Source of the DNA: a virus
Length of the DNA stretch: 64,000 bases
IMG/VR virus record: IMGVR_UViG_3300049844_000277
Location: 36,520-100,519 of that record
Reading direction: 5' to 3' (one strand)
Part shown: piece after piece, positions 7,269 through 37,100 of the stretch
Numbering within the stretch: the first letter of the stretch is position 1
How the letters are laid out: each line of letters starts with the position of its first letter
Notes under the pieces: generated by a model
Seen by the model: the letters and a program-made list of their open reading frames with translations, nothing else
Database searches by the model: none
Told to the model about the DNA's origin: nothing
Made by a program: the position numbers and the translations under genes

Positions 7269-8528
7269 TTAGCTCGCCGAAGCCGCGATTTCTCGAATGC
7301 GACCCAGAAGAGCGCTCTCCTTCTTCTGAGCCTTACCCGATTCGTCCTCGTGCTCAACTTCCTTCTTCATCTTCTTGCCCTTCTCAGACTTCGACTCGTC
7401 GCCCTTCATACCTTCCGCGCAAGCCGCCTCTGCTGCCTTCTTCTCCGCATGCAGATGGTTTAAGTACTCCTGCCTCGCGGTGTGGTCGTACCCAATCATC
7501 CGGCTGATAGCCGCAACCTTCTCGTCATCGCTCATCTCCGGAAGGTACGGACCCACGTCTTCCGCGGTCTTCTTAAAGAGGACCAGGAAAGCATCTTCCT
7601 CTGAAGTCTTGGAAGCTTCAATGACCGAGTTCGTCCCAGCGGGGCTGTTCTTAGGCGCCTTAGGGTGCGGCATCTCAGTGCCGACATGGTGCGTCTGAGG
7701 CTCCGAGATGTTGGCGTTACCCATTCCAACTAGGTACGCCCCCTGAGGACGATTCTTTGCGTCAAGCTTCGCCACTGAATCTACCGAGTCGGTAAGCTTG
7801 TTCTTGTCCTTACCGTCATGTAGTCCAACGAGCTTATTCGCAATCTTCTTAAGCTCGGCATCAAGCCCCGCCGCCTTCGCCGAACCGGCGTCCTTCGCTA
7901 CCGAATTCGTACCAGCAGGCGTATTCGCTGGACCCTTGGGATTCTTGCTCAAGTCACCAACGTGACCCTGCATAGACTCGAGCTCAGTCTTGCCCATGCC
8001 GTGGTGATACATTCCCTCGGGTCGTTGCTTTTGGTCTAACGCAGCAACCTCCCCATTATGTGCAGCTTGCGCGGGGTCATTACCCTTGTCGCCACCGTGC
8101 ATGAGAGCGCCGCCGGATGCTTGCTTAACCTCTTCCGCAGCCTTGGTCATACAGGCAACAGCCTCTTCGCCCGCAAGAGACTCGTAGTCCGCTTGAGCAG
8201 CGGTCTTCGTAACTTCAGCAGCAGCTTTTGCTACCTCGGGGCTGGGAGGAGGAAGCGGCATACCGCCCTCACCCGGAGGACCACCGGCAGCGCCGGCCTG
8301 CTCCATGAGCGCGTGAGCAATTTCCATGAGCTTATTCGCCACAGCGGCAAGCTCTTCCGGCGAATGACCGCCCTCAGGAGAAACTTCCGGCATTGGCGCG
8401 GCTACCGGAGAATCGGCGACAGCATCCGCCGCCTCATCCATGGCTTCCTTTGACGGAAACGCGATGATCCCCTGGCGAACCAGTTCGTGTGCAACTCCCC
8501 GTGCTGCGGCGCGCTTAAAGAGTCCCAT
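7269..8528 (-). CDS. Acidic Ala-rich protein with internal tandem repeat (419 aa); scaffold- or decoration-like, hypothetical
   Basis: Two repeat units: QRPEGMYHHGMGK...GHVGD...PKGPANTPAGTNSV and NRPQGAYLVGMGN...HHVG...PKAPKNSPAGTNSV. Helical, acidic composition; flanked by a terminator-like hairpin. Confidence 0.5.
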   Translation of the reverse strand: MGLFKRAAARGVAHELVRQGIIAFPSKEAMDEAADAVADSPVAAPMPEVSPEGGHSPEELAAVANKLMEIAHALMEQAGAAGGPPGEGGMPLPPPSPEVAKAAAEVTKTAAQADYESLAGEEAVACMTKAAEEVKQASGGALMHGGDKGNDPAQAAHNGEVAALDQKQRPEGMYHHGMGKTELESMQGHVGDLSKNPKGPANTPAGTNSVAKDAGSAKAAGLDAELKKIANKLVGLHDGKDKNKLTDSVDSVAKLDAKNRPQGAYLVGMGNANISEPQTHHVGTEMPHPKAPKNSPAGTNSVIEASKTSEEDAFLVLFKKTAEDVGPYLPEMSDDEKVAAISRMIGYDHTARQEYLNHLHAEKKAAEAACAEGMKGDESKSEKGKKMKKEVEHEDESGKAQKKESALLGRIREIAASAS

Positions 8529-9085: not shown

Positions 9086-10885
9086 TTAGTAACGCCCTTC
9101 CGGACCCATCCCAAATTCAGCCCCATAAGCATAGGCGGGTACCGGATGCGTACTGTGTAAATCAGACGCAGCGCCGGTTCGTGCCCCCTGCAGAAGGGAA
9201 TCCTTTAGATATCGGTGAGCCAAGCGCGCCATCCAGTCAGGATGTAGCAGTGGATTACGTGCCATCGGACGCATCAAAAATTCTACCCGAGGTAATGTAG
9301 TGGCGACAGATACTTCCGAAATTTTATGCTCATTCAATTTCTGTATAACTGATGGTGTTAACGGAGTTCCGGCGGTGAAGTGAAGAACTTCTTTACCGAG
9401 TACACCACCCTCCGCCTGCTTCAACGGAACAGATTTACTGTGCCGTGCTGCGGCATCTCTATACGTTGAGTAAGGAATAACCTCGCCCTTTACCAACGTA
9501 GGATGCTCATCAGTATGCTCGAGAACTTTGACGTGGTTGAGGTCCGCGCGGGCAACCAACTCAAGGTGCCGCTTGTCGACATTGAGTCCTTGTCCATGAT
9601 AGATGTCGTGCAATGTGTCCACGAGGTACTGTCGTCCGACACCAAAGCCCTTGTGATGAATGAGCTCGTCTGGTTTCGGAATTCCTTCTGATAAGACATC
9701 CCCCGCCTCTACTTTCTGTCCCACATGAACTAAGATTTTTAAGTTTGGTCCGGCGTAATGTTGTAAAGCATCAACATGCACGTATGTTCCACCGTGCGGA
9801 GCTGGGATTATTTTTGTAATAGTACCTGCGTGCTCTGCTAGCGGTGCTTTATTAATGAAGGTCTGGGGGATTTCCAAAAGCTGACGGATACCAGACATCC
9901 CCTCTAACTTGGGGGATGTACCTTTGAGTAACCGCATACCGTGCTTAGCGCCGAGCGCCATTTGAGTCAACGGTTCGGAGATAGACTGGGCGGCACGGAC
10001 TCCGACGTTAACACCGATAGCGTGCGGACGTCCTCGCTCATCTAGACCCTGGCACTTACGACAGACGCCATCCTTGGTGACGCAGGTCATTGGTGAACGC
10101 ACGTACACTGTACTGACCTTTGCCTGAAGCTTAGACGCCACTTCTTTTGTAACTAAATCATTCCGATGAAATCCAGCCTGGTCTCGAGATAAATAGCGGT
10201 CAACAATATTTCCATCGGAACTATTCATTGCGAGACCGTTATCAGTTCCGCAATCGTCCTGGGTAATAACCAGCGGATACATATTGTTGGTCATCACCTT
10301 AGACATATCGCCAGGCTCTGCGATGGCCGTATAGGTTTGTACGATGTTATGTCGCGCTTCGTTTCCTGCGGCCCAATGGTCAGCAGCGGACAACCCTTCG
10401 GCGTAGGACTTACTGATTAGCCAGGGATTTATCTCCCCTTTGCTTGTCGTAGTCGCAACCGGGGACGCAATGGTTTTCATCAGCTGCGGAATATTGCCGC
10501 GCGCACCCGACAATGCCATCGAGGTCATAGAACCTGGATGCTTTTTGGTGTGCTCAAGCATCTTCTTTTGTACATCTAAAATAATCTTCTCTTTGGCGTC
10601 TCTATTGTCCGCGTTTTTAATTGCGGCGACAGCGGGCTGCATGATGCTGTCGCGTTCTTTGTACTCCGGCGTAATGTCATCCAACCCTACAGAGACACCT
10701 TCAAGCGTAGAGATGTCGTCCCCTAAGGTTTTTAGCTTAGAGACAATTTCTACGTATTCGGCAGGATCTTCCTTGGCCAAGTCCAACATTTTCTGTTGGA
10801 ACTCTTTTTTATTTAGTGTGCCCGTAATGTGATGCTTCCCGGGCAGCAGGCTATTGACCAGAAACCTACCTAACGGCTGAGCCAT
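9086..10885 (-). CDS. rpoC: DNA-directed RNA polymerase beta' subunit, C-terminal half (separate polypeptide)
   Basis: Translation contains the conserved beta' C-terminal blocks: GVSVGLDDI, MALSGARGN...QL (trigger-loop region), ITQDDCGTDNG, MTCVTKDGVCRKCQG, GVRAAQSISEPLTQMAL, and the terminal ...ARNPLLHPDWMARLAHRYLKDSLLQGARTG region. Confidence 0.85.
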   Translation of the reverse strand: MAQPLGRFLVNSLLPGKHHITGTLNKKEFQQKMLDLAKEDPAEYVEIVSKLKTLGDDISTLEGVSVGLDDITPEYKERDSIMQPAVAAIKNADNRDAKEKIILDVQKKMLEHTKKHPGSMTSMALSGARGNIPQLMKTIASPVATTTSKGEINPWLISKSYAEGLSAADHWAAGNEARHNIVQTYTAIAEPGDMSKVMTNNMYPLVITQDDCGTDNGLAMNSSDGNIVDRYLSRDQAGFHRNDLVTKEVASKLQAKVSTVYVRSPMTCVTKDGVCRKCQGLDERGRPHAIGVNVGVRAAQSISEPLTQMALGAKHGMRLLKGTSPKLEGMSGIRQLLEIPQTFINKAPLAEHAGTITKIIPAPHGGTYVHVDALQHYAGPNLKILVHVGQKVEAGDVLSEGIPKPDELIHHKGFGVGRQYLVDTLHDIYHGQGLNVDKRHLELVARADLNHVKVLEHTDEHPTLVKGEVIPYSTYRDAAARHSKSVPLKQAEGGVLGKEVLHFTAGTPLTPSVIQKLNEHKISEVSVATTLPRVEFLMRPMARNPLLHPDWMARLAHRYLKDSLLQGARTGAASDLHSTHPVPAYAYGAEFGMGPEGRY

Positions 10886-11750: not shown

Positions 11751-12380
11751 TTAAGTACCGGCTCCACGGGAACCTCCTTCACAGAACATCATTCGCCGTA
11801 GGTCATCAGCATGCTGCTGGTCAGTAAGGACCATTTGCTCCAGCATGACCTTAAGCGACAAATTATCTCCGGCCATGTCTGACAGATGTCGTAACTCTTC
11901 AATCAATTGCTTCTCAGTTTGTAGAAGAGTCATGAAAATCTGGTGGAGGTCACTCATGTTCGGGATGACACCTACCTTAGGAATAGGTTCTCCGCCTAAC
12001 GCCGTAATCTTCATTGCGAGATGGTAGGCGTCCATCCGCTCTTCTTTGATGTGCTCTTTAAAGTGGTCGTAGATAACATCTCTAAAGTGCGCACGAATAC
12101 GATCGCCATAATTCATATACATGAAGATGATGGTATATTTGTAGCGCAGCAACTTATTACACTGAGCCACTACCTTATCCTGGGCAACCGCGAAGAATCC
12201 TTCCTCGGCCGATACAGCAAGAGGATGAGCACCAGCAGATGCTGTGGCAAGCGGAGGCATGGCGAACATCTCCTCCGTGTGCGGGGATGACTCCATTGTG
12301 TCCGCCATTGGACTGCTAGGAACTGGAAGACTCGAGCCACTCTCAGCCATGGAAGTACCCACTTTGTAGCGCTGCGTCAT
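11751..12380 (-). CDS. Hypothetical helical protein (209 aa) immediately after the rpoB-rpoC fusion; weak ferritin-like E/H spacing
   Basis: Start ATG overlaps the fusion-gene stop (ATGA). Paired E...H residues (KEHIKEERMDAYH, EQMVLTDQQH), but no clean ExxH pairs. Confidence 0.35.
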   Translation of the reverse strand: MTQRYKVGTSMAESGSSLPVPSSPMADTMESSPHTEEMFAMPPLATASAGAHPLAVSAEEGFFAVAQDKVVAQCNKLLRYKYTIIFMYMNYGDRIRAHFRDVIYDHFKEHIKEERMDAYHLAMKITALGGEPIPKVGVIPNMSDLHQIFMTLLQTEKQLIEELRHLSDMAGDNLSLKVMLEQMVLTDQQHADDLRRMMFCEGGSRGAGT

Positions 12381-15300
12381 GTACCCACCTCAACTCGAGT
12401 ATTGAGCGTAATCTCCCCGCGCTTATAGGCGGCGAGAGCTTCTTCTCTATTTTTGAAATGGCGTACTTTATCGTTCGCGGAACTCTCGGCTTTGGACGCC
12501 AAATGTACCCCAAGCATAGCTTCCATTCGTGGCGCTACCATCAAGCTATCTTTTTCACGGTCCGAGAATAGAAGGTTTGAGAGAGTCATCCCCTTCACTT
12601 CATCTATCGCGGGCTTCAGTACGGGAACGTGGATTTGGAATGTGTCCCAAACTACGAGGCCGTCGTTGACCGCGAAAATTTGTGTGTCAGGAACAATAAG
12701 GTCATAGACGGTTTCTTTTCTTAATACCTCGACCGACTCTACTAGATCCCAGGTAATTCCAACGTTCTCAACGATCCTTGCCCAAGCATCGACATCTGGT
12801 GTTTTGGCCGTCCGGAAAAAATGCAACATACGCCGAGCGTTTTGCCTCGTAACGTATGGAGCCTCTTTTCGTTTAGATCGTAGCGTAGCCAATGATGCGC
12901 AGAACGAACTATCTTCCGCGCACGGACCAGTACGGCTGGAGGCGAGGGTCATTAGATTTTTAGGAACAGGAACAATATCCACCTGATCCACAAGTTCATC
13001 AGCTTCTAGGAGGTTCAAAGCCTCCAAAGATTTAGAGTTGTTCCAAATTCCTCTACGAAGCCAGGACACGTTACGCTGGAGGTCTACGGTACTAATAGGT
13101 ATCGTATAAGCTACAGCTTTTTGGAGACGTCCCTCCTTCGGATATGCTTCGCTCACAGAACACCGGACGCCGATAGTTTGTAACAAAAAACGTAATGAAG
13201 CTGCTAACGCAGCAGACGACGTGTGAAGGGCGGCCATCACTTGAAGTTTTGCCTTACCGGCGCTGACAGTGAGTGTACCGTCACCGTTCAACATTCCGAT
13301 GAGCACACCCCACCGAGCCTCCTCAGACCAGTCCCCAAACGCTGGCACGCGTTTCGAGAGACAAGAGCGTCCGGGTACCCTCTCATCTAAGTAACAAGTC
13401 TTGAACAGCTCAACGCACTTCTGCGCACCACTAAAGTGGTCTTTGATACTTTGTCCTGTTATTCCGTTAGATGCGTCGTGTACCTCACGATACGTATTTC
13501 GCTTAATGAGCTTACCCTCAAACGCATTCACCGCGGCAGCAAAGCGTTCACGGTGCACGTCACTAACTTTCGTGTACCCGAAATAATGATCGGTTTCACC
13601 CAGTAAGAAACCGTCGGACAAGAATGCGCCGACCATCCATCCAAACTCAAAATCCCCCTGTGACCCCGTTAACGGTAAATGCCGCACAACCGGAGCTAAC
13701 TTTCCAACGGAATCCGAGGGCGCTGTTGCTTCGATCTGACCTGTTTCATGGTTATAAATACACAACGACTCATTCGTCGACGCCGTAACGCTTAAACCAC
13801 GACGCATTTCTACTTTCGCCACTTCGCATCCGTCTTCAATCGTAAGTCCTGTCACCGGGGACATTACTGATTTACTTGCGGAGTGGTCGTAAGAAAGAAC
13901 GCGAAAACCCTCCGGAACGGCGTAACTGCGAGCACCATTCTTGTCGATACTATAGGGCTCCTCAGCGTGTGGAATCTCTTGAAGCTCCGCTTCCACCAGC
14001 GCCTGTACCGCTGAGGTCCAACAAACACGAGTCTCTGCCGCGAATTTCATGGCTGTCTCCTTGGCTTCATCGCCAAGGAGCGCTTTACAAGCCGCACCTT
14101 CTGCTGTCAACACAACTTTCGTCGAACCCAAGAAACAGTTTCCATCGTAATCCGCATTGAAGCCAAGCTCTGCGAACGGATTTACGCGAATCGTCTTCCC
14201 CGCAACAGGGACGGCGTGAGCGCCAATAAACCCGTACCGGTGGAGAGTCGGAGCGCGATTCACCATCACCGGACGCTCCTTAATCTCCGCCATCAACGCG
14301 TCGTGCGCTGCCGGATGTTTCTTTTCCAACATCTCTTTCGCTTGAATGGCTCCGAAGCCGCGACGGATAAGGCGTGAGATAATAAACTTCCCGTACATGC
14401 CCCAAAGCATGTCTATCGGAATACCTATCTCATCCATGCTCAGAGAGCCGTCTGGAGCTATGGTTCCGCGGCCGGAGATATCTTGCTGCCGCTTCATTAT
14501 TCGTTTTTGGAAAAAGGAACTGTTCCCCGATACGGAAGGTTTACCGTTACGGCGAACAACTACAGTACCATTAGGGACTGTCACACAATACACGGTTCCT
14601 TTGTACGGGTACGCCTCGGTAAAAGAGCCCGACTCAATGGTGACATCAGAAAACCCCCGCACAGAAAAAAGATAATGCGGGAGATGGTGATCCTTAACTG
14701 GCGGACAAATTCCTCTAAAAATAACTTGGTAACCTATTTTTGCAGCGAGATGCTGTAGGTCATCAATTAATTGTAAACTAGCGGTACCGGCGTGAGCACT
14801 CAGCGGTTTACGCCGATAATGGGTTTTCGGGTTTTTCACGTTCTTCGCTAACGAAGGGTGAAGGGTTCCATCTCCACGCAGATATCCGCGCAATAATCCC
14901 TCTAACATAGCAGAAGGCCACGCTAAAATATCTGAAGATAAGTGTTTACTCTCGCACCCACGCCCGCAATGATGCGTTAACCAATCCGCCAGTGAGCGTA
15001 ACCTAATAGTCCACCAGATTACCTGGTATCCATCTTTACGCGTATATGTTTTGCGTACAAAGGGAATATCCAATTTTTTAAAGCACAAATCCACCGCGCG
15101 AACGTGTGGAGACGTTGCGGCTTGACACAAAGAAACCTGGGTTCCTGTTGTGGAAATCCAACCTTCCGCAATCCACCAACCTACAAACTCCGCAAAGGCC
15201 AAAGGATCTGGAGTAAATGTTCCTACTAAATTAGCCGTACGCCGTTTTTTGTTATCCGTAGAAACTTCACACGTATCTCCCGCGAAAACCAACTCCGGAA

Positions 15301-18300
15301 AAGTACCCTCCCACTCCTCAGCGCTAACCATTACCCTCCGGCGGTCCGTGCCTATAAAAGTATCCGCGCGTACCTTTTCCCACGGAGTCCAGACATAGAG
15401 CGCCTTACCGTTACTTACGCGCTTACGGCGATACGAGACTACATGTTCGTGGTTAGGTGTTACACATAAATCAAGTTCACGGCTGCGCGTATGTATCAGA
15501 TCTCCGTCGAACGGCATGGATACTAACGCGGTCGGCTTCTGCCATTCAAATTCCCGGGTGTCTAAGTTAACCGTAGCGACACGAGTTTTTCCGGTGTACT
15601 TAGAAAAACGAACCCACCCTTTTTCTGTAAGAATATCTGTTTGATCATCGTAACATTTTGGCGTAGTTTTCCCGGTAATATGCTCGAGAAATCCCTTTAC
15701 GTTTCTCTTTTGGAGTTTGGGGTTATCTGATTCGTGCGTACCAATCACGGCGCCTACCGCGTGAAACAAGTTCTGACGAAGCTTCGCTTGTTCATCCGGC
15801 GGAAGAATTGGAGATTCAATTTGCTTCCGTAATGACTGATTATGAAGGATAGCGCTTTGGTACAGGTAGTTCGAATCACCTACTACGAGCTCAGAGCCAC
15901 TCTTCCCCGGAAGAATGGGTCGCATTATTGGAGGAAGAACAGGCAACTTGGATAGGACGTACGCATCTCCCGGCTTGAGCTCCTGCCGATTCAGCGCCTC
16001 AAGGAACTTCAACTGCTTTACTGCGTCATCTAGCTTCGTACCGGAGAGCGACTTAATAGAGTTACGGAGCTCCGCGATACGCGCCTTAACGTCGATAGCG
16101 TTAAGCTTTTTCTTTACCGCAGCGCCACCATTCGTATGGTGATACTGGTCAAAATCTTTCGCGGTCATCCCCAGCAAGCGACGGGCAGGGTCGGCGAATA
16201 CAGGATTTACAACGGGCTCGGCGAGCTCAATGTGGCTCCACCGTGTTCCAGTGGTACCGCCAGTAACCGCGGGGTCAAACAATCCCCCACGTTCAGCGGC
16301 CAAATCTTTAGCGCGTACTAACTTCTCATTTTGTACTTCGCCAGATGACATCCGTAGAATGTCTTTATCGGTAAGCGGAGAGAGCGTGCTGATACTTCCA
16401 CGCGAATCAACTTTGACCCCTGCGCCATGCAGCATACCGATGAACTTGTCATAAACGAACGACGACTTGAGTGGAGGGAGAGGCAGTCCCAGCTGAATCG
16501 CCCGCCAGAACTCATCGTTCTTCTGGCTCTTAATAGCCGCCGTCTCTCGAAGCACGTTCCGCGCATTATGTGCAACGAGGGCATTGAACTCCATTTTACC
16601 GACGGCTTTCGCGCCTTCGTCACCGCCCTTAATTGGCTGCTGATTAACGTCGTACGCACCCGTACCGCGCGCGGCGTAGTTGGTCTCCGTGGTCTTAAAC
16701 AAGCGAAGTACGTATTGCGGCCCAACCAGGATTCCCGGAATCTTTTTACCCGACACAGGGTCTATCAGCGTTTCCTTGTCCTTGACCTTGTGCTCCTTCA
16801 GTAAATCCTTTGCCCACTGTACGTTGTCACGCCCTGAAAAGTTTTCAACGACAATAGGTTTACCGATTTTCTTGGCAACCTTAGCGACACACGTCTCTAG
16901 TATTTGCGACGGATTGATTCGGGAAATTACGCCAGCCGAGGTATACAAAACCTCAATCGGCTTACCCGTCTCATCTTGAAGCATCTTGTGATCGGGAACA
17001 ATAAGGGAAACAACGCCCTTGTTTCCGTGGCGTCCTGTGTTTCCGCACCATACTGATTTACCATTTCTGCGAACATACAAAACATGTCCAGGAACAGTTA
17101 CACAGTAAACTGGTGATTTGTACGAATCTACAAAACATTCCACCTGACCCTTCTGTCGTTTGATATGTCCATGATTCACAGTAGGTGTTAATTTCGAATT
17201 AATAATTCGTACCTGCCAATAATCACGACACCAAAAATCTTTACCTTTGATTGTTTGATACCCTTCAGCTTTCGCTAACGACACATTAGCAGCTTTACCA
17301 ATATGTAGTGCGAGACGCTGAACATCATCCGCCAAACGTTTGGATGTTGTTTTGTAGCATATCGGTTGGCCATTTTTAGTATGACCGTCACCCCACATCA
17401 ACCAGTTGAATAGCGTCTCTTGATCCGCTCGAGACCAAGCGAACACCTCAAGCGGGATAAATTTCTCGTAAGACTTACCGAACTGTTTAAAGTACTGCCA
17501 ATATTGCTTGGAATGAATACGAACCTTATCACCTGTGTCCGTGAATAAAATCCCTTCCTCACGAAGAAACTTTTCTAACTGTTTTCGATTTGGCTGATTA
17601 ATTTGCGTAATCTCTATGCCGTAAGTACCGGATTCTTCAATCGTAATGAGATTACCTTCAGATAAAAACGCACCGAGAAGAGCGGCTAAGGTTTTAGTCG
17701 GAAGCGCTTTATCATCTAAAACACGTAAACCCCGGCCCCCTTGTCCCGCGCGCACAGTTATCGAGTCAAATACAAACGACTCAGGAGAGTGCCCCACCCA
17801 AATCCCATCCTTCTTATAACTGACCCTTTTTCCTGCGATTTCATACGCCGGTAAAAGTTGGAAAGATTTCTCGTTGCGCGGTTGAACGTACATATGATGT
17901 CCGTCGGTCACAAACAAATCTACCTGTTGTGATTCGATGCGGTACATCCGTCCGCCTTCTGGATACGAATGAATTGCGTCGGGCTCTAGGTACTCGATAT
18001 TTTCGCCATTCTGTAACGTACAAATCTTATCCGTAATACGTACATCCGCTATCGGTTTCCACCCTTCCCACGTGAGAACCTCAGTCTCTGCATCATAACA
18101 GAGCTTGTCTCCGACGCGCATCGGCTCACGGGTCTTAACCGTTACAACGACACGCTTGTCCGTCACATAAACATCCATGACTTCACCTTCGAAGTCGTGG
18201 TCCCACGTACGAACAAGTTCCCGATACGGCGTAACTAACGTCTTCTTTAGGTTACCGAGAAGCGCATCAGACGCCGAAAGTTTACCTCGTGTGACTCCAG

Positions 18301-20887
18301 CGATGAGTATGTCGTGAGGCATAACCTTCATGCCCTTCTTCACGACACCATTGGGGTCAAGCTTACGATACTGCTCTGCGGTATACTTCGACCCGTAGTA
18401 CTGCTGATGGATATCCCTGCCAACCTTGGAGTCGCGATCTACTTCAACAACTTCCTTGTACATATGCTCTGACGTTAACTTCTCGGCGGCGCCAGAGGAG
18501 ATAACGACGGCATCGTTGGAGTTCATTCCGTAATACGGAACGTACCCTACCGTCATATTCGTACCGAGAGCGAAGGAACCGTTGCGGGTAAAATTAGACT
18601 CCGCGAGCGGCTGATCCGCTTCTACCTTATCACCAGGCTTCACCAGAATGTCGTGATGAAGGTGTGTCTTAGATGCGAACGGAAAATTATTCTCGTATGG
18701 AACCCGAATCAAATCTTTCTCAGCAGCTACCTTTTCCCGATTACGCTCGGAGAGGTAGTCCTCTTTAAACTCATCCCAGGTATACTCATCCATGGAACCG
18801 TAGCCCCAAGGAGGACCGTGCTTCTCGTAAGCGCTTTTAGCGGCCTCTTTGGAATCGAAGCCAAGCATGCACTTGTCTTCGTCGTGAGACCCATCCTTCT
18901 TGCGCTGATGTACGACGTAAACATTATCGAAAGAACCATCTTCCTTCAGATAAACGTCGACCGTTTCACCGTCGTCGCCGACGGTCTTAGGAATGTGTCC
19001 GTAGGCCACGGACATCTTCTTTTCCCACTTCTCTCCTTCGGCGTTAGTGCCGGTACGAATATCTCCCGGTTCAAGCTCAATCTTAACGAGCACACCTTGA
19101 ACAGTCTTTTGACGCTTGACCGCCCCGCCTCGTTTCTCGAAAGCGCTCTTCTCGCTTAAGAAATCTTCAGCGTGCTTCTTTCCGCTAGGGTCGATGTAGA
19201 TGTATTGCCCATCAACCTTCACTACTTTGCCCGCTACAGGTGCCGTAGGAAGAACCAGCCCCGCGAGCTCCTTCTCCCAGCTTGAATGCTCAACACCCTT
19301 CTCAGTCAACTTATTGGCGGCTGATTGTACAAGAGGTGCTTCGCGATGAACGAGAGGAAGGGCTTGTGTTTGAACCTTACCACCCATGATGGCACGGTTC
19401 CCCTGCATCGACTCAAGGAACGGGACAAGGTTAGTTGCCGGAGAATACAACTGAGCCACGTCGTACAACTGGTGAGTCACCTTTGCCGCTGGTACGTGCT
19501 CCAACTGCCCTTTGTTCATTGCGGTGACCATTCCCGTAAGCTTTTGCTTAGGGAACGCCACGACCGCCTCGGACATTTGAGCCGCAGACAGCATCTCATA
19601 CTTACCGGACTTAATGTTCTTAGCTGCGGTGTAGAGATTTCCCGTAGCATCCCGGTGCGCCATCATCGCCGTGCGAATATCAATACCAGCGCGGAAGGAC
19701 TCAGACGTACGAACGGGGTCCAGTATCCCTAGATGACTCGAATGAATAGTACGCGCTTCAGCGGGAATCGCGCGCTCATTCGGAATACCTCCTTCGCCGA
19801 GAGATGTAACACGCACAGCGTGGTCGATGGCCTCCATCGGGTTGATGTGCGTGGGAATCGAGCTCAGTTGTGAACCCGTAAGAAAACTTCGGATGCCGGG
19901 CGAAAAGGGCGACGAAGGAAGAATCGCACGGAGTTCAGTCTTATGTGTTGCGCGACCCTTTACCTTATTTGCCAGGGCACGTGCATCCAGCGTTATACGT
20001 TCCTTGATAAAATCGTCTACCGAATGATACGTCTTGAAACGTAAAGCGTCACGATCATCAGTATCCGCATTATCCCGGTACACCTGTAATAGCCGCTTCG
20101 ACGCAACGAGTAGTGCCTGCGGCGTAACCGATGAAAAAGCGTGCCCCAAGGTTTGTTGGTTAACCTCGGGATCCATAGACGTAACAGCGTAAGCTGCTCG
20201 AATAGCATCAAGCTGTGTCTCAGGATTAGTCGCAGCACGTTTAGCCGGATGCACTACTTTCTCGTAAAGCTTATTCAAATGCTTATCGTGCTTACCTTCG
20301 AAAGCCGCCTCATTTTGATGAGCGACATCCGAGCCCCAATGAGTAGAAATATCAGCGTGCGGAACGCCTAATTTTCGAAGTACGGGGTAAAGCGGAATAG
20401 ATGTCGTCCCATACTCGATGTATGGATGTCCTTGGGCAGGGTCTAACGAAAGTCGAAAATTGGTTCCCTTCGACAAGTTAAAGGCGGCCTCTAGTTCCTC
20501 ATTTCCACGTCGCCGCGTATAGACGCCAGGCTTGAGCCGAAGTTGATTTGATACGTTGTACTCGTTACCGTCCAAAATAAAAGTATGCCGTCCTGTGAAA
20601 TAAGGAAGACTCAATAACGTAAAGTTCTTAACTTTCTCAACTTCTTTACCGGAAGCATCACGTAGTGTGACGGTTCCTTTTATCGGCTCAGAAAGAGAAC
20701 CACCGCTCAATAGCGCGTGCTTTTGATCGTTTGGGCCAAAGTCCTTTTCATGGACCTTCAGGTCACTGACCTCAATACTCTTATCCCGCAATGTCAGTGG
20801 AAAAGCGTTTCGCAACGCATCGAGCGCCTTTGCACGAATTTGAACTCGACGGGACTCGGCATCGGTAAGCACGGGAGTGAGCGACAT
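12377..20887 (-). CDS. rpoBC: Fused DNA-directed RNA polymerase beta subunit plus beta' N-terminal half (2836 aa), interrupted by three LAGLIDADG inteins
   Basis: Beta motifs: N-terminal GTFILDGNEYNVSNQLRLKPGVY; VTSLGEGGIPNERAIPAEARTIHSSHLGILDPVRTSESFRAGIDI; FLESMQGNRAIMGGKVQTQALP; NMTVGYVPYYGMNSNDAVVIS; MRVGDKL/TGRHGNKGVVS split by an intein; LETCVAKVAKKIG; GTGAYDVNQQPIKGGD...GKMEFNALVAH. From about aa 1500 come beta' motifs: GHIELAEPVVNPVF; LPVLPPIMRPILP; SNYLYQSAI; NRAPTLHRYGFIGAHAVPVAGKTIRVNP; NADYDGN/TFQIHVP split by an intein. The ORF ends about 90 aa after the catalytic loop. Confidence 0.9.
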   Translation of the reverse strand: MSLTPVLTDAESRRVQIRAKALDALRNAFPLTLRDKSIEVSDLKVHEKDFGPNDQKHALLSGGSLSEPIKGTVTLRDASGKEVEKVKNFTLLSLPYFTGRHTFILDGNEYNVSNQLRLKPGVYTRRRGNEELEAAFNLSKGTNFRLSLDPAQGHPYIEYGTTSIPLYPVLRKLGVPHADISTHWGSDVAHQNEAAFEGKHDKHLNKLYEKVVHPAKRAATNPETQLDAIRAAYAVTSMDPEVNQQTLGHAFSSVTPQALLVASKRLLQVYRDNADTDDRDALRFKTYHSVDDFIKERITLDARALANKVKGRATHKTELRAILPSSPFSPGIRSFLTGSQLSSIPTHINPMEAIDHAVRVTSLGEGGIPNERAIPAEARTIHSSHLGILDPVRTSESFRAGIDIRTAMMAHRDATGNLYTAAKNIKSGKYEMLSAAQMSEAVVAFPKQKLTGMVTAMNKGQLEHVPAAKVTHQLYDVAQLYSPATNLVPFLESMQGNRAIMGGKVQTQALPLVHREAPLVQSAANKLTEKGVEHSSWEKELAGLVLPTAPVAGKVVKVDGQYIYIDPSGKKHAEDFLSEKSAFEKRGGAVKRQKTVQGVLVKIELEPGDIRTGTNAEGEKWEKKMSVAYGHIPKTVGDDGETVDVYLKEDGSFDNVYVVHQRKKDGSHDEDKCMLGFDSKEAAKSAYEKHGPPWGYGSMDEYTWDEFKEDYLSERNREKVAAEKDLIRVPYENNFPFASKTHLHHDILVKPGDKVEADQPLAESNFTRNGSFALGTNMTVGYVPYYGMNSNDAVVISSGAAEKLTSEHMYKEVVEVDRDSKVGRDIHQQYYGSKYTAEQYRKLDPNGVVKKGMKVMPHDILIAGVTRGKLSASDALLGNLKKTLVTPYRELVRTWDHDFEGEVMDVYVTDKRVVVTVKTREPMRVGDKLCYDAETEVLTWEGWKPIADVRITDKICTLQNGENIEYLEPDAIHSYPEGGRMYRIESQQVDLFVTDGHHMYVQPRNEKSFQLLPAYEIAGKRVSYKKDGIWVGHSPESFVFDSITVRAGQGGRGLRVLDDKALPTKTLAALLGAFLSEGNLITIEESGTYGIEITQINQPNRKQLEKFLREEGILFTDTGDKVRIHSKQYWQYFKQFGKSYEKFIPLEVFAWSRADQETLFNWLMWGDGHTKNGQPICYKTTSKRLADDVQRLALHIGKAANVSLAKAEGYQTIKGKDFWCRDYWQVRIINSKLTPTVNHGHIKRQKGQVECFVDSYKSPVYCVTVPGHVLYVRRNGKSVWCGNTGRHGNKGVVSLIVPDHKMLQDETGKPIEVLYTSAGVISRINPSQILETCVAKVAKKIGKPIVVENFSGRDNVQWAKDLLKEHKVKDKETLIDPVSGKKIPGILVGPQYVLRLFKTTETNYAARGTGAYDVNQQPIKGGDEGAKAVGKMEFNALVAHNARNVLRETAAIKSQKNDEFWRAIQLGLPLPPLKSSFVYDKFIGMLHGAGVKVDSRGSISTLSPLTDKDILRMSSGEVQNEKLVRAKDLAAERGGLFDPAVTGGTTGTRWSHIELAEPVVNPVFADPARRLLGMTAKDFDQYHHTNGGAAVKKKLNAIDVKARIAELRNSIKSLSGTKLDDAVKQLKFLEALNRQELKPGDAYVLSKLPVLPPIMRPILPGKSGSELVVGDSNYLYQSAILHNQSLRKQIESPILPPDEQAKLRQNLFHAVGAVIGTHESDNPKLQKRNVKGFLEHITGKTTPKCYDDQTDILTEKGWVRFSKYTGKTRVATVNLDTREFEWQKPTALVSMPFDGDLIHTRSRELDLCVTPNHEHVVSYRRKRVSNGKALYVWTPWEKVRADTFIGTDRRRVMVSAEEWEGTFPELVFAGDTCEVSTDNKKRRTANLVGTFTPDPLAFAEFVGWWIAEGWISTTGTQVSLCQAATSPHVRAVDLCFKKLDIPFVRKTYTRKDGYQVIWWTIRLRSLADWLTHHCGRGCESKHLSSDILAWPSAMLEGLLRGYLRGDGTLHPSLAKNVKNPKTHYRRKPLSAHAGTASLQLIDDLQHLAAKIGYQVIFRGICPPVKDHHLPHYLFSVRGFSDVTIESGSFTEAYPYKGTVYCVTVPNGTVVVRRNGKPSVSGNSSFFQKRIMKRQQDISGRGTIAPDGSLSMDEIGIPIDMLWGMYGKFIISRLIRRGFGAIQAKEMLEKKHPAAHDALMAEIKERPVMVNRAPTLHRYGFIGAHAVPVAGKTIRVNPFAELGFNADYDGNCFLGSTKVVLTAEGAACKALLGDEAKETAMKFAAETRVCWTSAVQALVEAELQEIPHAEEPYSIDKNGARSYAVPEGFRVLSYDHSASKSVMSPVTGLTIEDGCEVAKVEMRRGLSVTASTNESLCIYNHETGQIEATAPSDSVGKLAPVVRHLPLTGSQGDFEFGWMVGAFLSDGFLLGETDHYFGYTKVSDVHRERFAAAVNAFEGKLIKRNTYREVHDASNGITGQSIKDHFSGAQKCVELFKTCYLDERVPGRSCLSKRVPAFGDWSEEARWGVLIGMLNGDGTLTVSAGKAKLQVMAALHTSSAALAASLRFLLQTIGVRCSVSEAYPKEGRLQKAVAYTIPISTVDLQRNVSWLRRGIWNNSKSLEALNLLEADELVDQVDIVPVPKNLMTLASSRTGPCAEDSSFCASLATLRSKRKEAPYVTRQNARRMLHFFRTAKTPDVDAWARIVENVGITWDLVESVEVLRKETVYDLIVPDTQIFAVNDGLVVWDTFQIHVPVLKPAIDEVKGMTLSNLLFSDREKDSLMVAPRMEAMLGVHLASKAESSANDKVRHFKNREEALAAYKRGEITLNTRVEVGT
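12644..14137 (-). mobile_element. Intein 3 (about 498 aa, LAGLIDADG type) inserted in the catalytic NADFDGD Mg-binding loop of beta'
   Basis: Sequence NADYDGN-CFLGSTKVVL...FGWMVGAFLSDGFLLG...WGVLIGMLNGDGTLT...VYDLIVPDTQIFAVNDGLVVWD-TFQIHVPV. The flanks align with the bacterial NADFDGDQMAVHVP. The C-terminal residue appears to be Asp with Thr at +1; the exact boundary is uncertain. Confidence 0.7.
14522..15655 (-). mobile_element. Intein 2 (378 aa, LAGLIDADG type) in RNAP beta' N-terminal region
   Basis: Starts CYDDQTDILTEKGW. Motifs FVGWWIAEGW and LLRGYLRGDGTL. Ends YCVTVPNGTVVVRRNGKPSVSGN followed by Ser. Excision gives ...ITGKTTPK-SSFFQKRIMKRQQDISGRGTI, aligning with the bacterial [24 protein letters not shown]. 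Confidence 0.75.
17039..18100 (-). mobile_element. Intein 1 (354 aa, LAGLIDADG homing-endonuclease type) in RNAP beta between GDKL and TGRHGNKG
   Basis: Starts CYDAETEVLTWEGW (block A-like). LAGLIDADG-like motifs LLGAFLSEGNL and FNWLMWGDGHT. Ends ...YCVTVPGHVLYVRRNGKSVWCGN followed by Thr. Excising it restores GDKL-TGRHGNKGV, matching the bacterial GDKMAGRHGNKGV. Boundaries verified on the DNA. Confidence 0.8.
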
Positions 20888-22362: not shown

Positions 22363-25300
22363 TTATACAGGCTGATTTTGTTGCGCCATTTGCGCCTTCG
22401 CCTGCTGTCCTTGTTGGTTCTGAAGATCTTCCAGGCGTTGAATGACAACCGCATGCATCACAGCGTCTTCCTTACTTAAGCTATCCAACTGTGAACGCCT
22501 AGAACCAACATCCAGCCCCATGAGCTGCTGCACTATCTGGTCAGCCTGCGCGATGACCGCCTGCTGGTCGTAGTTGAGCCCAGGAGTACCTTGAGCCTGT
22601 AGCTGAACCTGCTGGGACAAGTTATTCTGTAGTTTTCGTAGCTCATTCTGGACGCGCTGATTGTGCCGCGCCTCATCAAGAGTTTCTTGTAGACGCTTCT
22701 CTCGTTCTGCGTCCAAATCAATGTCGAGTCGCTCTAGTATGGTAGTCATTGAGACGTACGAGGGACCCGCTTGCCCGGTAGCCATGCTGAGCAGTAATTG
22801 TTTAGACTCAGTGTCATCGACCATCTTCAAAGGCGTAAGTTTCGCCTCTATCTTCTCCCAGCCAAGATACCGGGACATCTGGTCGCTGTACCACTGTAGT
22901 AGGTCATTCATATCATCCGCGTGCCCTTGCGTTTGATTCTGAATGAGCCGGAGAGTTGCCTCCATGCCTGCTTTAGTTAGTCCACCGTAGAGGAACTCCT
23001 GCGGAATACCTAACGCAGCCATAATGCTCTTCTCAGCTTCTTGAAGCTCACCGAGCGTTAACATCGCCCGTCCATCGCCACCAAGATTGGATACACCAAG
23101 AGCTACTGGTGCCATCATTATGTGTAAGGGGTCACGTCGCCAGCGACGAATATTTTGTTTCATTTCATCTTGCCAACGCGCAAGAGAAATCATTTGCGTA
23201 AAATCTTGCTGTCCGTTTTGTGCGGGATGCAAGATACGCATTGGCACGACGTGCTCCAGCGCGATCGAATTTTTAGTAGCCCCACCCGCGATACAAAACG
23301 TGGAATCCTCCGCGATCTTGAAGTCAATGTATTGTTCCTCTTCCGACTCCTCTACCACGCTCACTCTCGCCGCAAAATAATCTTTCCAGAAAAAGCCACT
23401 CTTGCCGATGGTAATCTCTTCCGCATCCTCCCAATTCCATAGCGCGTAAAGCCGCTCTTGGGACGCACCGCTAACCCGTACGTGGTAACTCGGTCCGTTT
23501 GGGGTAATAACACGCCCATCAGCAAGCGCGTGAATCGGGGTAATGTGCTCACGAATCGTCGCAATACATCCTACGTGAAGGAGCATACGGTAAACATCAT
23601 ACGCAAGGCCCGCACTGGAGGTGGCGAGAGTATCTTGCCCTTCCCGCGTGTGACCATCCGCCTCCCAGAGACCTTTCAAGAATGCGAGCTTTACAGAATC
23701 CGGCGCATGAAATACTTCCGAAGGAACGCGCTTAACGCGCGCGGTTCCCGGAACCATGCCCTTGATGAGAGCCTTCACAATCACATCACACAAGGTAACC
23801 ATGCTACAGTTACCTCTCTGATTGTATCCACCGCACTCCAAGCCAAACTCTCGCCGAATTGCTTCCCGGAGGGGCTCTTCCGTCTTACTGCCCATCGCAA
23901 TCATAACGGTACGCTGGTTACAGGAACCATTTCCAACGTAATGCCCGAGGATATACGCGAAGTCCTCTGTCATCGGGCGCGTCGCGGGGAGGCGTTTTGG
24001 AACGGACCCTTCTTTCAGCTTCCTACGCGCAATCTTCCCAGGGACTCCCTTCACATGCTCACCGGCGCTCTCCGCCTCAAACGCCTGCGCGGAGGGTAAT
24101 GACATCGCGCTGTAAACGTAATTCTCGGTGTTCGCGAAACCGGTGTACTTAGCAACATCTACCTGCTGCGGCTCCGACGGAATTGTCCGGGGGTAGAGGA
24201 TATAATCACCCTTCTCGAACTGTTCCGCGGGACACATCACCTCTTCGTACAAATGCGGATTCTGAAGAATCTCCGACGACGTCTGCTTGTCTTTCGTATC
24301 CGACCGACGTGCGTCGCTTGTCCGTCGAAGGGTAAGGATGGGATGGTGCGGGGAAAATACCCCGCTGAGATGCCGAAGCCCCGAAAGCGTAATACGGCAT
24401 CCGATTTCATCATCCTTCGCATCCCGATACCACTTCTGCTCGACTGGACGCCACCGCCCGAGGTGTGTTCTCACCAAGTCGCCAACACGTACATCATCCG
24501 CGGGCACGAGACCGGTAGACGTCTCAATGAGTGTATCGAGACTGACGCACTCGTTCGCCTTCCTTAGCGTCATGGTGTAGAGGAAGAGCTTGATTGTCGA
24601 CGCAAGCGGAGGAAATCCCCACTGCTGGTCAATACCCGAAGGACTTGGAACCTTGATATGAAAAAGAGCGTCCTTCTCAAAACGAAACGTCTTGTTGTCT
24701 CGAATGTTTTCCAAGAACTCCATAGGCATCGAATTAATAAGATGCTTTGACCCCGATTTAACTTGGTCCTTAACGTCCTGCGGGATGTTATAGTAGTATA
24801 CAGATTGTCCCGTAATCGGATTGTAATCTATATCCATTAGCTTGGGATCCCACCGAATAATATGGACCCGGCTAGCAGCTAGAATCTTACGGTCAACGAC
24901 TGTACCACGCACATCTCGCTTGCAATGCAGGCAGTGGTAGGTGAAAGCCAGCGATTTCAGCTCAAACTTGTAATCAGTGTGCTGAATAGCAACGAGTTGC
25001 TGACAACTAGGACACTTCAGACTACGAACGAACGGCTTATAAATTGATGTAAAATGATTGCCATATATGTGCTTATCGAGCGACGCCATGAGAAGCGCAC
25101 TCTTAATCTTCAAAGTTTTTTCAAAAAGACGGCGATAGTTGCGCCGGAGTGCTTCATTCGATGTTCCGTACTCGAGGTCAGTTACGACGAGCTCTCCAAA
25201 TTTACGCAGAGCCGCGTAAACATGTGCACTATTATACATCAAATATTCGCACCATTTAAAGAGATCTTTTAGCTTTCTTGGTACAAAACCCGTTAGGAAG

Positions 25301-34143: not shown

Positions 34144-37100
34144 GTGCCCACAACCCGAGGAGCTCTCATGGAGAAGCCCGCAGAAATCTGCAGCGGATGT
34201 CCTCGAGAAATCGAGACAGAGACCCATCCCTACGGTTATGTTGAATCGTGGATTGATTCAAACGCCGAACTCATCATCATAGCGGAAGCTCCTGTCTGCG
34301 ATCGCCACGGTAACGTTCCTAGCTCTTTCGACGATGACAGCGGTAAAATCATTCGAACCGCCGTATCCGAGCTACGTAACTTACCTTCGCACAGTAAGCT
34401 AGCGGTCTCGTATACGTACGCAGTACTCTGTACAAGCAACCAGGGCGACAAAGACCCCGAAAAAGCCGTACTGCAACGGTGCCGTACGCTGCTCCAAGCT
34501 GACTTACGTCGCGCAAACAAGAACGCCGTCCTGCTGGTAATGGGTATGTCTGCCCTTCGCGCACTAGAAATAAAAGCCGCGAAGTTGAAGGACATGCAGG
34601 GGCGATTACTCCAAAAGCAGAAAATTGGAGAAGGTGATGACGCTCCGATATTCGATGTCGTCGTAACCGTCTCGACAAAACAGTTGTTCGCGATGCCGGG
34701 AATCTACACGACGTTCGTAGCGGACCTGCGACGAGCTGCGGACGCTGCGAGCGCAGGTGGATTAACACACGTTACCCCACTCGAAAAACTAACCGAAAAA
34801 TACGTAATCCCGAAAACAATCGAAGAAGTACGCCAAATCTGTCGCGAAATACTGAATTATCAAGAAGGTAAAGTATCTGCAGATAACTGGCCTATCTCTG
34901 TAGACACCGAGACAAACACCAAGTTTCCACACCGAGAAAACTTGAAAGTATTGGCGGTGTCCTTCGCATGGGCGGAGGGTAAAGCTACTGCAATTCCATT
35001 AGAGCACCCCACTACACCCTACGCGTACCAAGACGCGATACCGTACGTACGCGAAGTCTTAGCGAGCAAGAAGCCGAAGTTCCTTCATAATGCTAAGTTC
35101 GACCTTAAAGTCTTCATGAAAGCGGGCTGGCCGATTAACGGGTTCGCTTGGGATAGCATGCTAGGGGAACATGCTCTCGAAGAAGATAAAAAGGGACAGT
35201 ACGGATTAAAGCAGTTGACCCGTACTTTCTTCCCGGAATTCGCGACATACGCCGACTCTCTTCAAGAAATGCTCACGCACGAAGAGGGCGACTCGCAGCT
35301 CGACAACCTGAGGAAAGCGCCAAAAGCTTCAACTTCGAAAGATGGGGGATTTGAAAGTATCCCACTTCCCACGCTATTGCTTTATGCGGCAGTCGATGCA
35401 GATATGACACGGCGGCTAGTGTTACTGCAGGAAAAAAGAATTACCGACGAGCAGAACAGAGTAATCGTAGAAACGAATATAACGAAGAGAGAGCAGGCGC
35501 TGGCGATTTCGGCGAGGAAGAAAATACGGCTGAGAATTGCGCCGCTACATAGTGAGACGGAGATGTTGAAGAAGTACATGGTGCTCTACCCCGTCCCAGA
35601 ACTCTGTTCCGCTGATAAGCCGGTAAGACAACTAGTACTGAACAACGTATTCCCCGTTACCCCAGCTCTCGCGAGAATGGAGTTTAAGGGCATACGGATA
35701 GACAGACCGTACCTAACTACGTTGCGTGAAGCGTTGGGAAAAGTCGTCACAGAAACCGCTGCAGAGCTACAGGATATGGCGGGCAGAGAGATAACTCTCA
35801 ATAGTCCGGCAGAGATAGCTGAAATCCTGTTCAACAGCGGGTTTATACATCCAACAACTCACGCCCCCACGACTTATCCCCTCACAGGCATCGGTAAGAC
35901 AAAAACGGGACAGATACAAACCACCGAGAAAGTGATGCAGTACTTGGTGGCGAAGTATCAGTGCCCCTTTGCAGCTAAAAAACTAATCTACGCCAAGGCA
36001 TATAAAGCGAAAAATACGTTCTGTCAGAATGTGTGGGATCTCTCGGAGCTCGACGGGTATCTACACACGAACTACAACCAGCACGGCACAAATTCGGGTA
36101 GACTGTCCTGTGTCGCGGGAGAAACCGTACTAGATACTAATTACGGAAAAATCGAGATACAGAATCTCGATCTGGAGAAGATGCCGGGGATTACCATCCA
36201 GACCCACGAACTCCGCGAACAACCGATTCTACGTAAAATAGAAAAAGGCATTGAAGAAATGTTCGAGGTCGAACTCGAAGACGGGCGCACCATCACCGTG
36301 ACTAAAAAACATCGCTTCTTGACGCCGACGGGGTGGAAACGACTCGAGGAACTGTCAGAAAATGCCGAAATACTCTGCGCCGCCTCCGTGGGTAGTGGAC
36401 CAAATATGCGACTCGTTACAACCCGGATAAAAAGCATACGTCCCGTAGGTCCTAAGAAAGTCTGGGACCTCACAGTAGCGGTCGATCACTCTTACATCGC
36501 CCACGGATTTGTTAACAAAAATTCCAACGATGAAAACATGCAAAACATCCCCAAGAAATTGGCGGGTGTTAACATTAAGAAAGTGTTCCTCCCGGACGAT
36601 GATTCGTATGTCTTCGTCAACGCTGATGCGAAGGGTGCCGAAGTACGAATCCTAACCGCCTACTGCCGAGACCAAGCGCTCATACAATCGCTCAACGCGG
36701 GGCAGGACACGCATTGTTTCATCGCGTCCAAGATTGTTGAAATCGTACGTCAGAGTCCTGGTGCAACGGCGGTTCTCGGAAGCATGAATCTAAGCGATGA
36801 GTATCCTCTGACGTACGAAGACTTCGCGGCTAGAGACAAGCTAAAAGAAACCAATAGTAAGTACGGGGCGATGCTCGACAAATTCAGAACCGCTGTCAAA
36901 CGCGTAGTGTTCGGTATTCTGTACGGCGCCGGTCCTCAGAAAATTGCGGAAACTATTGGTATCAGTCTAGAGCAAGCACAACAGCTCATTCACACTCTGT
37001 TCGCTTTGTTTCCGTCCATCAAGACGTACATGGCGCAGACAAAGTGGGAACTACAACAATTTAATTTAGTCGAAACGTTCTTCGGTAGACGCCGTAGATT

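Follow-up and report, generated by a model that had tools for sequence, protein, structure and literature searches.

Two Gly-Asn inteins in a fused phage RNA polymerase gene: probable separate site-specific lineages of one large intein family

The viral DNA analysed here, a stretch of 64,000 nucleotides from IMG/VR record IMGVR_UViG_3300049844_000277 (positions 36,520 to 100,519 of that record; hereafter the window), encodes a fused RNA polymerase beta/beta' protein that is interrupted by three inteins. Two of these, intein 1 in the beta part and intein 2 in the beta' part, end in Gly-Asn instead of the usual His-Asn, and a preliminary description had proposed that they are paralogues which arose by duplication or transposition within this genome. 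Our analysis points to a different history, in which inteins 1 and 2 represent separate, site-specific lineages of a single class-1 LAGLIDADG intein family that were gained or kept by homing and are not copies of each other; we assign this reading a probability of roughly 0.9. The lineage of intein 1 would be tied to the beta site GDK(L/M/F)|xGRxGNKG and that of intein 2 to the beta' site G..(S/T)PK|S(G/S)xFQ (here and below, a vertical bar marks an insertion or splice point). Both inteins are new members of an already known, very large intein family.

The host gene and the elements of immediate interest are located in the window as follows.

12377..20887, minus strand: open reading frame (ORF) of the fused RNA polymerase beta/beta' protein, 2836 amino acids according to the ORF list and its translation, with three inteins inside
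17039..18100, minus strand: intein 1, 354 amino acids, ORF residues 930-1283; class-1 intein with LAGLIDADG endonuclease, in the beta motif GDKL|TGRHGNKG
14522..15655, minus strand: intein 2, 378 amino acids, ORF residues 1745-2122; class-1 intein with LAGLIDADG endonuclease, in the beta' motif GKTTPK|SSFFQKR
15656..17038, minus strand: extein segment between inteins 1 and 2, 461 amino acids; end of beta and start of beta'

In this ORF the Pfam domains Rpb2_3 and Rpb2_6 precede Rpb1_1 and Rpb1_2, and it therefore comprises beta followed by the N-terminal part of beta'. Intein 1 lies between ...RVGDKL and TGRHGNKG (C-terminus ...VWCGN|T), and its empty allele in relatives reads RVGDKLT|GRHGNKG; intein 2 lies between ...GKTTPK and SSFFQKR (C-terminus ...SVSGN|S), and the empty allele reads GKTTPKSS|FFQKK. 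After removal of all three inteins the host protein is 1606 amino acids long, and intein-free relatives have 1604-1612 amino acids. Because the empty alleles restore the host motifs and the spliced length matches that of the relatives, the intein boundaries are exact. The range 14522-18100 given for the pair in the preliminary description coincides with their outer limits to the base, position 14522 falling in the last codon of intein 2 and position 18100 in the first codon of intein 1. The extein of 461 amino acids between the two is 83-87% identical to uninterrupted, intein-free sequence in the IMG/VR relatives L007-L011 and L014.

The motifs on which the classification of both inteins is based are these.

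18059..18100, minus strand: block A of intein 1, CYDAETEVLTWEGW, with the Cys1 nucleophile
15614..15655, minus strand: block A of intein 2, CYDDQTDILTEKGW, with the Cys1 nucleophile
17885..17920, minus strand: block B of intein 1, DLFVTDGHHMYV, TxxH present as TDGH
15437..15472, minus strand: block B of intein 2, DLCVTPNHEHVV, TxxH present as TPNH
17651..17689, minus strand: first LAGLIDADG motif of intein 1, LAALLGAFLSEGN, acidic residue Glu (...FLSEG)
17381..17413, minus strand: second LAGLIDADG motif of intein 1, LFNWLMWGDGH, acidic residue Asp (...WGDG)
15158..15196, minus strand: first LAGLIDADG motif of intein 2, FAEFVGWWIAEGW (...IAEG)
14864..14905, minus strand: second LAGLIDADG motif of intein 2, LEGLLRGYLRGDGT (...RGDG)
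17039..17107, minus strand: block F/G of intein 1, YCVTVPGHVLYVRRNGKSVWCGN, with F:4 Cys, penultimate Gly and terminal Asn
14522..14590, minus strand: block F/G of intein 2, YCVTVPNGTVVVRRNGKPSVSGN, with F:4 Cys, penultimate Gly and terminal Asn

Both inteins show the class-1 features Cys1, block B TxxH, a terminal Asn and a Thr (intein 1) or Ser (intein 2) at position +1. The penultimate His (G:6) typical of this class is missing from both and replaced by Gly, just as had been described before, and the C-terminal strings quoted at that time are present in the sequence. Each intein carries two LAGLIDADG motifs with the acidic residue and Gly kept, and both are thus predicted endonucleases; the Pfam model LAGLIDADG_3 matches intein 1 at E = 9.5e-9 and intein 2 at E = 1.3e-4. 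The F:4 Cys raised class 3 (WCT) as a candidate, which is ruled out by Met (intein 1) or His (intein 2) at B:12 and Cys or Ser, respectively, at G:5. Since Cys1 is kept and neither Trp nor Thr of the triplet is present, both inteins belong to class 1 and not to class 3.

The similarity between inteins 1 and 2 extends over their full length (BLASTP: 24% identity, 67.8 bits, E = 5e-17). It exceeds the likeness generally found among class-1 inteins, because the other three inteins of the window match inteins 1 and 2 at merely 0-4 of the last 23 residues. The two are thus members of one recognisable family and homologous to a closer degree than class-1 inteins in general; copying within this genome is not supported, at 24% identity and with no bootstrap replicate uniting the two (see below). 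The C-terminal blocks F/G, which had been called near-identical, agree at 14 of the last 23 residues (61%), which is the median of all family pairs, and the earlier wording was thus too strong. At the DNA level the last 26 aligned codons show 56% nucleotide identity, and only 7 of the 15 identical amino acids are encoded by the same codon. Because the codons differ, the shared block has been kept by selection on the protein and not by recent copying or gene conversion; gene conversion limited to the C-terminal block, which we considered as a separate possibility, is likewise ruled out by codon usage.

A recent intragenomic duplication, or an ectopic transposition between the beta and beta' sites in this phage or a close ancestor, would account for the fact that two inteins with the same family block and the same Gly-Asn end, and with similarity over their full length, are found inside one ORF. 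We nevertheless consider such an event extremely unlikely. More than 100 inteins of other genomes are nearer to each of the two than they are to each other: when 134 family inteins are ordered by similarity to intein 1, intein 2 comes 130th, and in the order for intein 2, intein 1 comes 110th; moreover, all 150 of the 150 best proteins found with intein 2 (HMMER) outscore intein 1 against intein 2. The synonymous sites of the shared block are randomised, and the inteins are neither mutual closest relatives nor do they retain the leftover DNA similarity expected of recent paralogues. Their reconstituted target sequences of 60 nucleotides have 9 bases in common in register, which bears out the earlier statement that the two insertion motifs are unrelated. 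In addition, the closest phage relatives have neither intein. Phylogenetic analysis, which had been suggested as a check of paralogy, speaks against it as well. A neighbour-joining tree built for 196 inteins places intein 1 in a group of ten rpoB inteins located at its own site, and intein 2 in a clade of fifteen beta'-site inteins; bootstrap support was obtained for a subset of 84 taxa with 100 replicates. The pair of intein 1 and P0001 was recovered in 100 of 100 replicates, that of intein 2 and P0141 in 88 and the ten-member site-1 clade in 74, but inteins 1 and 2 were never sisters (0/100).

Relatives at the same sites in other genomes likewise support two lineages. A search of a large protein database with intein 1 yielded 223 relatives, the closest of which, P0001 from a marine metagenome, occupies the same rpoB site (HVGDKL|C...SGN|SGRYGNKG) and is 54% identical. 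Further same-site inteins are those of P0012 (57%, partial match) and of P0009-P0011 and P0017 (33-37%), all in Rpb2_6 proteins, and about 100 ThyX inteins are next nearest (28-37% identity). For intein 2, a word-indexed search found only 20 relatives (best 30% identity), whereas an exhaustive HMMER search returned 8460 representative proteins at E<=1e-3. The best match, P0141 (47-50% identity), has its intein at precisely the beta' position of intein 2 (GKTTPK|C...VSGN|SSFFQKK); dozens more are found at the same or adjoining beta' positions with 30-38% identity. Alleles at the same site are thus about 50% identical elsewhere, in contrast to the 24% between inteins 1 and 2. This grouping by site agrees with Goodwin et al. 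2006 (PMC1635734), who state that an intein usually resembles its alleles more than it resembles inteins at other sites in the same species. Likeness between two inteins of one gene is thus no proof of duplication: shared family signatures can look like paralogy, and the right comparison is that with same-site alleles elsewhere.

The eight closest relatives in this phage group (extein identity 69-87%, six of them at 83-87%) carry neither intein 1 nor intein 2. In L031, L032 and L036, site 1 is filled by inteins with about 35% identity to intein 1, and in L034 it holds a mini-intein (7560..8000) which has lost the endonuclease; a further site in the first extein holds family inteins in L012 (5373..6425) and L040 (5367..6425). 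The exteins of P0141 are 56-65% identical to those of the window and its intein about 50%; for P0001 the values are about 50% and 54%. Because intein and extein divergence are similar, both long residence with sporadic loss and repeated homing among related phages fit the data. The beta' homologues P0141-P0290 hold family inteins in several closely spaced registers (FG|C..|SSPK, SPK|C..|SG, SPKF|C..|S, SPKFG|C..|SVQRK), which suggests repeated independent invasion of a short conserved stretch or a sliding insertion point.

In the proposed scenario each intein would have reached, or stayed in, the phage lineage via endonuclease-driven homing into an empty allele. Splicing would start with a thioester between Cys1 and the N-extein, followed by acyl transfer to Thr+1 (intein 1) or Ser+1 (intein 2); the intein would then be freed by cyclisation of its terminal Asn, and an O-to-N shift would produce GDKL-TGRHGNKG and GKTTPK-SSFFQKR. 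The spliced junctions predicted in this way are the sequences of intein-free relatives.

The family to which both inteins belong has the signature CYDxxTEVLT...VTPNH...VYCVTVPN..LYVRRNGK..W[CS]GN, with the C-terminus [WV][CS]-Gly-Asn and Cys at F:4, and inteins 1 and 2 align end to end with its members at 25-54% identity. Conservation among 196 members is high in block A (C1 100%, T10 100%, G13 99%, W14 96%), in block B (Thr 99%, His 100%), in block F/G (F:4 Cys 92%; the two Arg of the VRRNGK turn 98% and 96%) and at the C-terminus (penultimate Gly 96%, terminal Asn 100%). The columns C1, T10, G13, H68, G143, G149 and N354 are invariant, and G353 is present in at least 90%. The first searches gave 132 inteins, of which 122 end in Gly-Asn; for the exhaustive search the figures are 224 of 235. 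Host proteins include ThyX, RNA polymerase, methyltransferases, terminase, MCM-like helicases and others, and 80 of the 149 top database proteins contain at least two family inteins. The same F/G block is present in the ThyX protein of Corynebacterium phage P1201, in a Lak-A1 phage, an EBPR siphovirus methylase, the Gordonia GMA6 terminase and a nucleotidyltransferase of cluster C mycobacteriophages; examples from cultured phages read VYCATVPNHTLYVRRNGKPVWSGN|S and VYCVTIPNHILYIRRNGKGVWCGN|S. The Lak-A1 intein scores 123 bits against intein 1 and 115 bits against intein 2, so that even within cultured phages there are inteins nearer to both than they are to each other. For cellular genomes, source names point to Heimdallarchaeota, Nanoarchaeota, Methanobacteriota and planctomycete/Tautonia, a distribution that rests on these few names. 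The Gly-Asn ending thus marks a very large phage, archaeal and bacterial family, which is useful for intein annotation and for picking new splicing tools.

A penultimate Gly is also known from the M. jannaschii RNA polymerase A' intein and the C. eugametos ClpP intein. In phage class-1 inteins the penultimate His is often swapped for Gly, Lys or Ser (PMC5050341), and about 5% of functional inteins have a residue other than His at G:6, while at F:4 only one residue is commoner than Cys (PMC4031507). The ending that had been called atypical is real, but it is not a private oddity of this genome. One could still suspect that loss of the penultimate His reflects decay and that both inteins splice poorly or not at all, since the G:6 His normally assists Asn cyclisation (PMC4031507); moreover, the block-F His beside the terminal Asn is absent from intein 2, as from about half of the family, and Gly stands in its place. 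Such degeneration is very unlikely. Gly in 96% of the 196 members speaks for selection and not for decay, the remaining key residues (Cys1, block B Thr and His, terminal Asn, Ser or Thr at +1, the acidic residues of the LAGLIDADG motifs) are all intact, and the ORF is unbroken in an essential-looking gene. In addition, the Bethlehem gp51 intein with its penultimate Gly splices to completion, whereas its G316H mutant is slow and accumulates precursor (PMC5050341). Within this family, Gly at the penultimate position is normal and selected, and no defect.

It is conceivable, though on balance doubtful, that the invariant G:6 Gly and the F:4 Cys together form an undescribed arrangement for Asn cyclisation in this family; if the chemistry differs, the family would represent a mechanistic subclass of class 1, beyond a sequence variant. 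The Arg-Arg pair of VRRNGK is an unlikely stand-in for the penultimate His, judging from the secondary structure of the intein 1 model: because the last strands of the model (residues 340-345 and 348-353) pair with each other, the Arg pair is placed at a hairpin turn far from Asn354.

This AlphaFold model, built from an alignment of 47 sequences, has a high predicted local distance difference test value (pLDDT 96) and predicted template modelling score (pTM 0.94). Foldseek retrieved the inteins TliVMA, PhoVMA, PI-PkoII, PI-SceI and PI-PfuI at E = 1e-15 to 1e-10, and the fold search also showed resemblance to Hedgehog Hint domains and to I-DmoI. As modelled, intein 1 thus has the HINT fold of the splicing domain. 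The family profile matches PI-PkoII at E = 2e-19. Each intein alone found no match among the PDB sequences; only the family profile and the fold search succeeded.

Several points weigh against the reading of two lineages maintained by homing. The deep branches of the family tree lack support. Site 2 is unoccupied in all 35 IMG/VR relatives, and the history of intein 2 in this phage group rests on database proteins. The splicing domains of both inteins escape the models TIGR01445, TIGR01443, PF14890 and Hint, with LAGLIDADG_3 as the sole match; because these curated splicing models find neither intein, family membership rests on motifs, insertion logic and predicted fold, and annotation by curated models could overlook such inteins. 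Thus the data show the boundaries, the family membership and the allelic relationships of inteins 1 and 2 and, as modelled, the fold of intein 1, and active splicing and homing are inferred.

A further objection is that the beta'-site lineage may have originated from a beta-site intein, or the reverse, by a site switch in an ancestral polymerase gene, which would make inteins 1 and 2 very old paralogues. The family fills at least three sites in the polymerase gene of this phage group (the first-extein site of L012 and L040, site 1 and site 2), the proteins with two or more family inteins mentioned above fit such a process, and because the family also occurs in ThyX, methylases, terminases and others, many changes of site must have taken place. 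We judge an ancient switch between these particular sites improbable all the same. The site-1 and site-2 clades are not neighbours, and their common node spans the whole neighbour-joining tree; by distance, only two rpoB-site alleles, those of P0001 and L036, are nearer to intein 1 than the ThyX inteins; and because the deep nodes are not resolved, nothing is positively in favour of the switch. Separate lineages, each gained or kept by homing, remain the best explanation for inteins 1 and 2, which open no new biological question of their own.

The window contains three more inteins, one of them in the same ORF.

12644..14137 (-1 codon 14138..14140), minus strand: intein 3, in the same ORF, within the catalytic NADFDGD motif of beta'
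23269..24549, minus strand: portal-protein intein, 427 amino acids, ends in KN
36109..36522, plus strand: DNA polymerase A mini-intein, 138 amino acids, ends in KN; located at GRLS|SNDENMQNIP

The penultimate His is missing from all five inteins of the window, which end in GN, GN, WD, KN and KN. Of all that the window contains, intein 3 is perhaps the most interesting. Its junctions read NADYDGN|C...VVWD|TFQIHVP and the intein-free relatives have NADYDGD|TFQIHVP; at position -1 there is thus an Asn where the third metal (Mg)-binding Asp is expected, and the last residue of the intein is Asp, not Asn. The same arrangement, Asn-Cys...Trp-Asp|Thr, is repeated in P0291 (43% identical) and in L042, L043 and L056 (40% identical); overall, three diverged lineages with 40-44% identity show the pattern. 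Inteins with Ser1 at site 3 retain the Asp at -1, and in L026 and L032 the junction is D|C; L028 is also among the loci that bear on the pattern at this site. None of the 24 intein-free relatives in which the motif was matched by our scan has Asn at this position; all have Asp. Canonical splicing of intein 3 would give NADYDGN-T and with it, puzzlingly, a polymerase without the third catalytic Asp. In some site-3 inteins (L013, L047, L048, L054) the first residue behind NADFDGD is Lys, Gln or Glu and the C-terminus reads ...ILSN|T; these lack an N-terminal nucleophile and may be class-3-like.

The genes around the polymerase ORF are phage-typical (large terminase, family A DNA polymerase, VapE-like primase/helicase, SNF2 helicase), and the fused polymerase is also found on 35 IMG/VR contigs with 37-87% identity. 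By polymerase sequence the nearest cultured relatives are the Vibrio phages D69, D181 and D148 and the Salmonella phage Arash (36-38% identity, about 180-187 kb); megablast of the polymerase gene against cultured phages gave no match. The rest of beta', its C-terminal portion with Rpb1 domains 4 and 5, is located on a separate downstream ORF (9086..10885, minus strand), and the polymerase is therefore split within beta', about 90 residues past NADFDGD, although beta and beta' are fused. An inorganic pyrophosphatase-like (InPase-like) domain (PF18823, E = 1.6e-32) is inserted in the beta part (ORF residues 590-709, about 18761..19120, minus strand), and by crude extein mapping about 130-165 residues around this region are seemingly missing in some relatives. 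For annotation, the gene is best regarded as a single beta/beta' polymerase of 1606 amino acids broken up by inteins, and as nothing exotic.

Among inteins of known structure, TliVMA and PhoVMA (7qsu, 7qss, 7qst), PI-PkoII (2cw7), PI-SceI (1vde, 1lws) and PI-PfuI (1dq3) share the two-domain layout of HINT and LAGLIDADG domains with the model of intein 1. These endonuclease-containing inteins match the model with a Foldseek probability of 1.00 and a template modelling (TM) score of about 0.6, although sequence identity is just 10-17%. With respect to sequence, one of the closest known counterparts is the ThyX intein of phage P1201, together with about 100 metagenomic ThyX inteins like it, which belongs to the same family, begins with CYSSDTEVLT, ends in VYCATVPNHTLYVRRNGKPVWSGN|S, carries a LAGLIDADG domain and is 29.6% identical to intein 1 over its full length. 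Although it resides in another host protein and at another site, it scores 119 bits against intein 1, for which intein 2 reaches just 68 bits. A sequence relative of intein 2, at 25% identity, is found in the cluster C nucleotidyltransferase (phage Daffodil gp3); this intein ends in RRNGKVAMHGN. The Bethlehem gp51 intein (PMC5050341) is likewise a phage-borne class-1 intein with Cys1 and a penultimate Gly; its host gene differs, and the likeness is drawn from these features.

Class 3 inteins with the WCT triplet, such as that of Bethlehem DnaB (PMC2807308), have the F:4 Cys and the occurrence in phages in common with inteins 1 and 2, which differ from them in keeping Cys1. With respect to location, the inteins of RPB2, RPA2, RPC2 and their viral counterparts (PMC1635734) are comparable, as these also interrupt conserved polymerase motifs and occupy multiple non-allelic sites per gene family; they are found in polymerases of eukaryotes and giant viruses, whereas inteins 1 and 2 reside in a phage beta/beta' fusion. 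The RPB2-b type is reported to end in TGN (PMC1635734), and its site may be identical with site 1. In our own data, the beta site of intein 1 is filled by family members in RPB2 of the eukaryotic or giant-virus type (P0070 and P0103, GDKF|C...TGN|SSRHGQKG).

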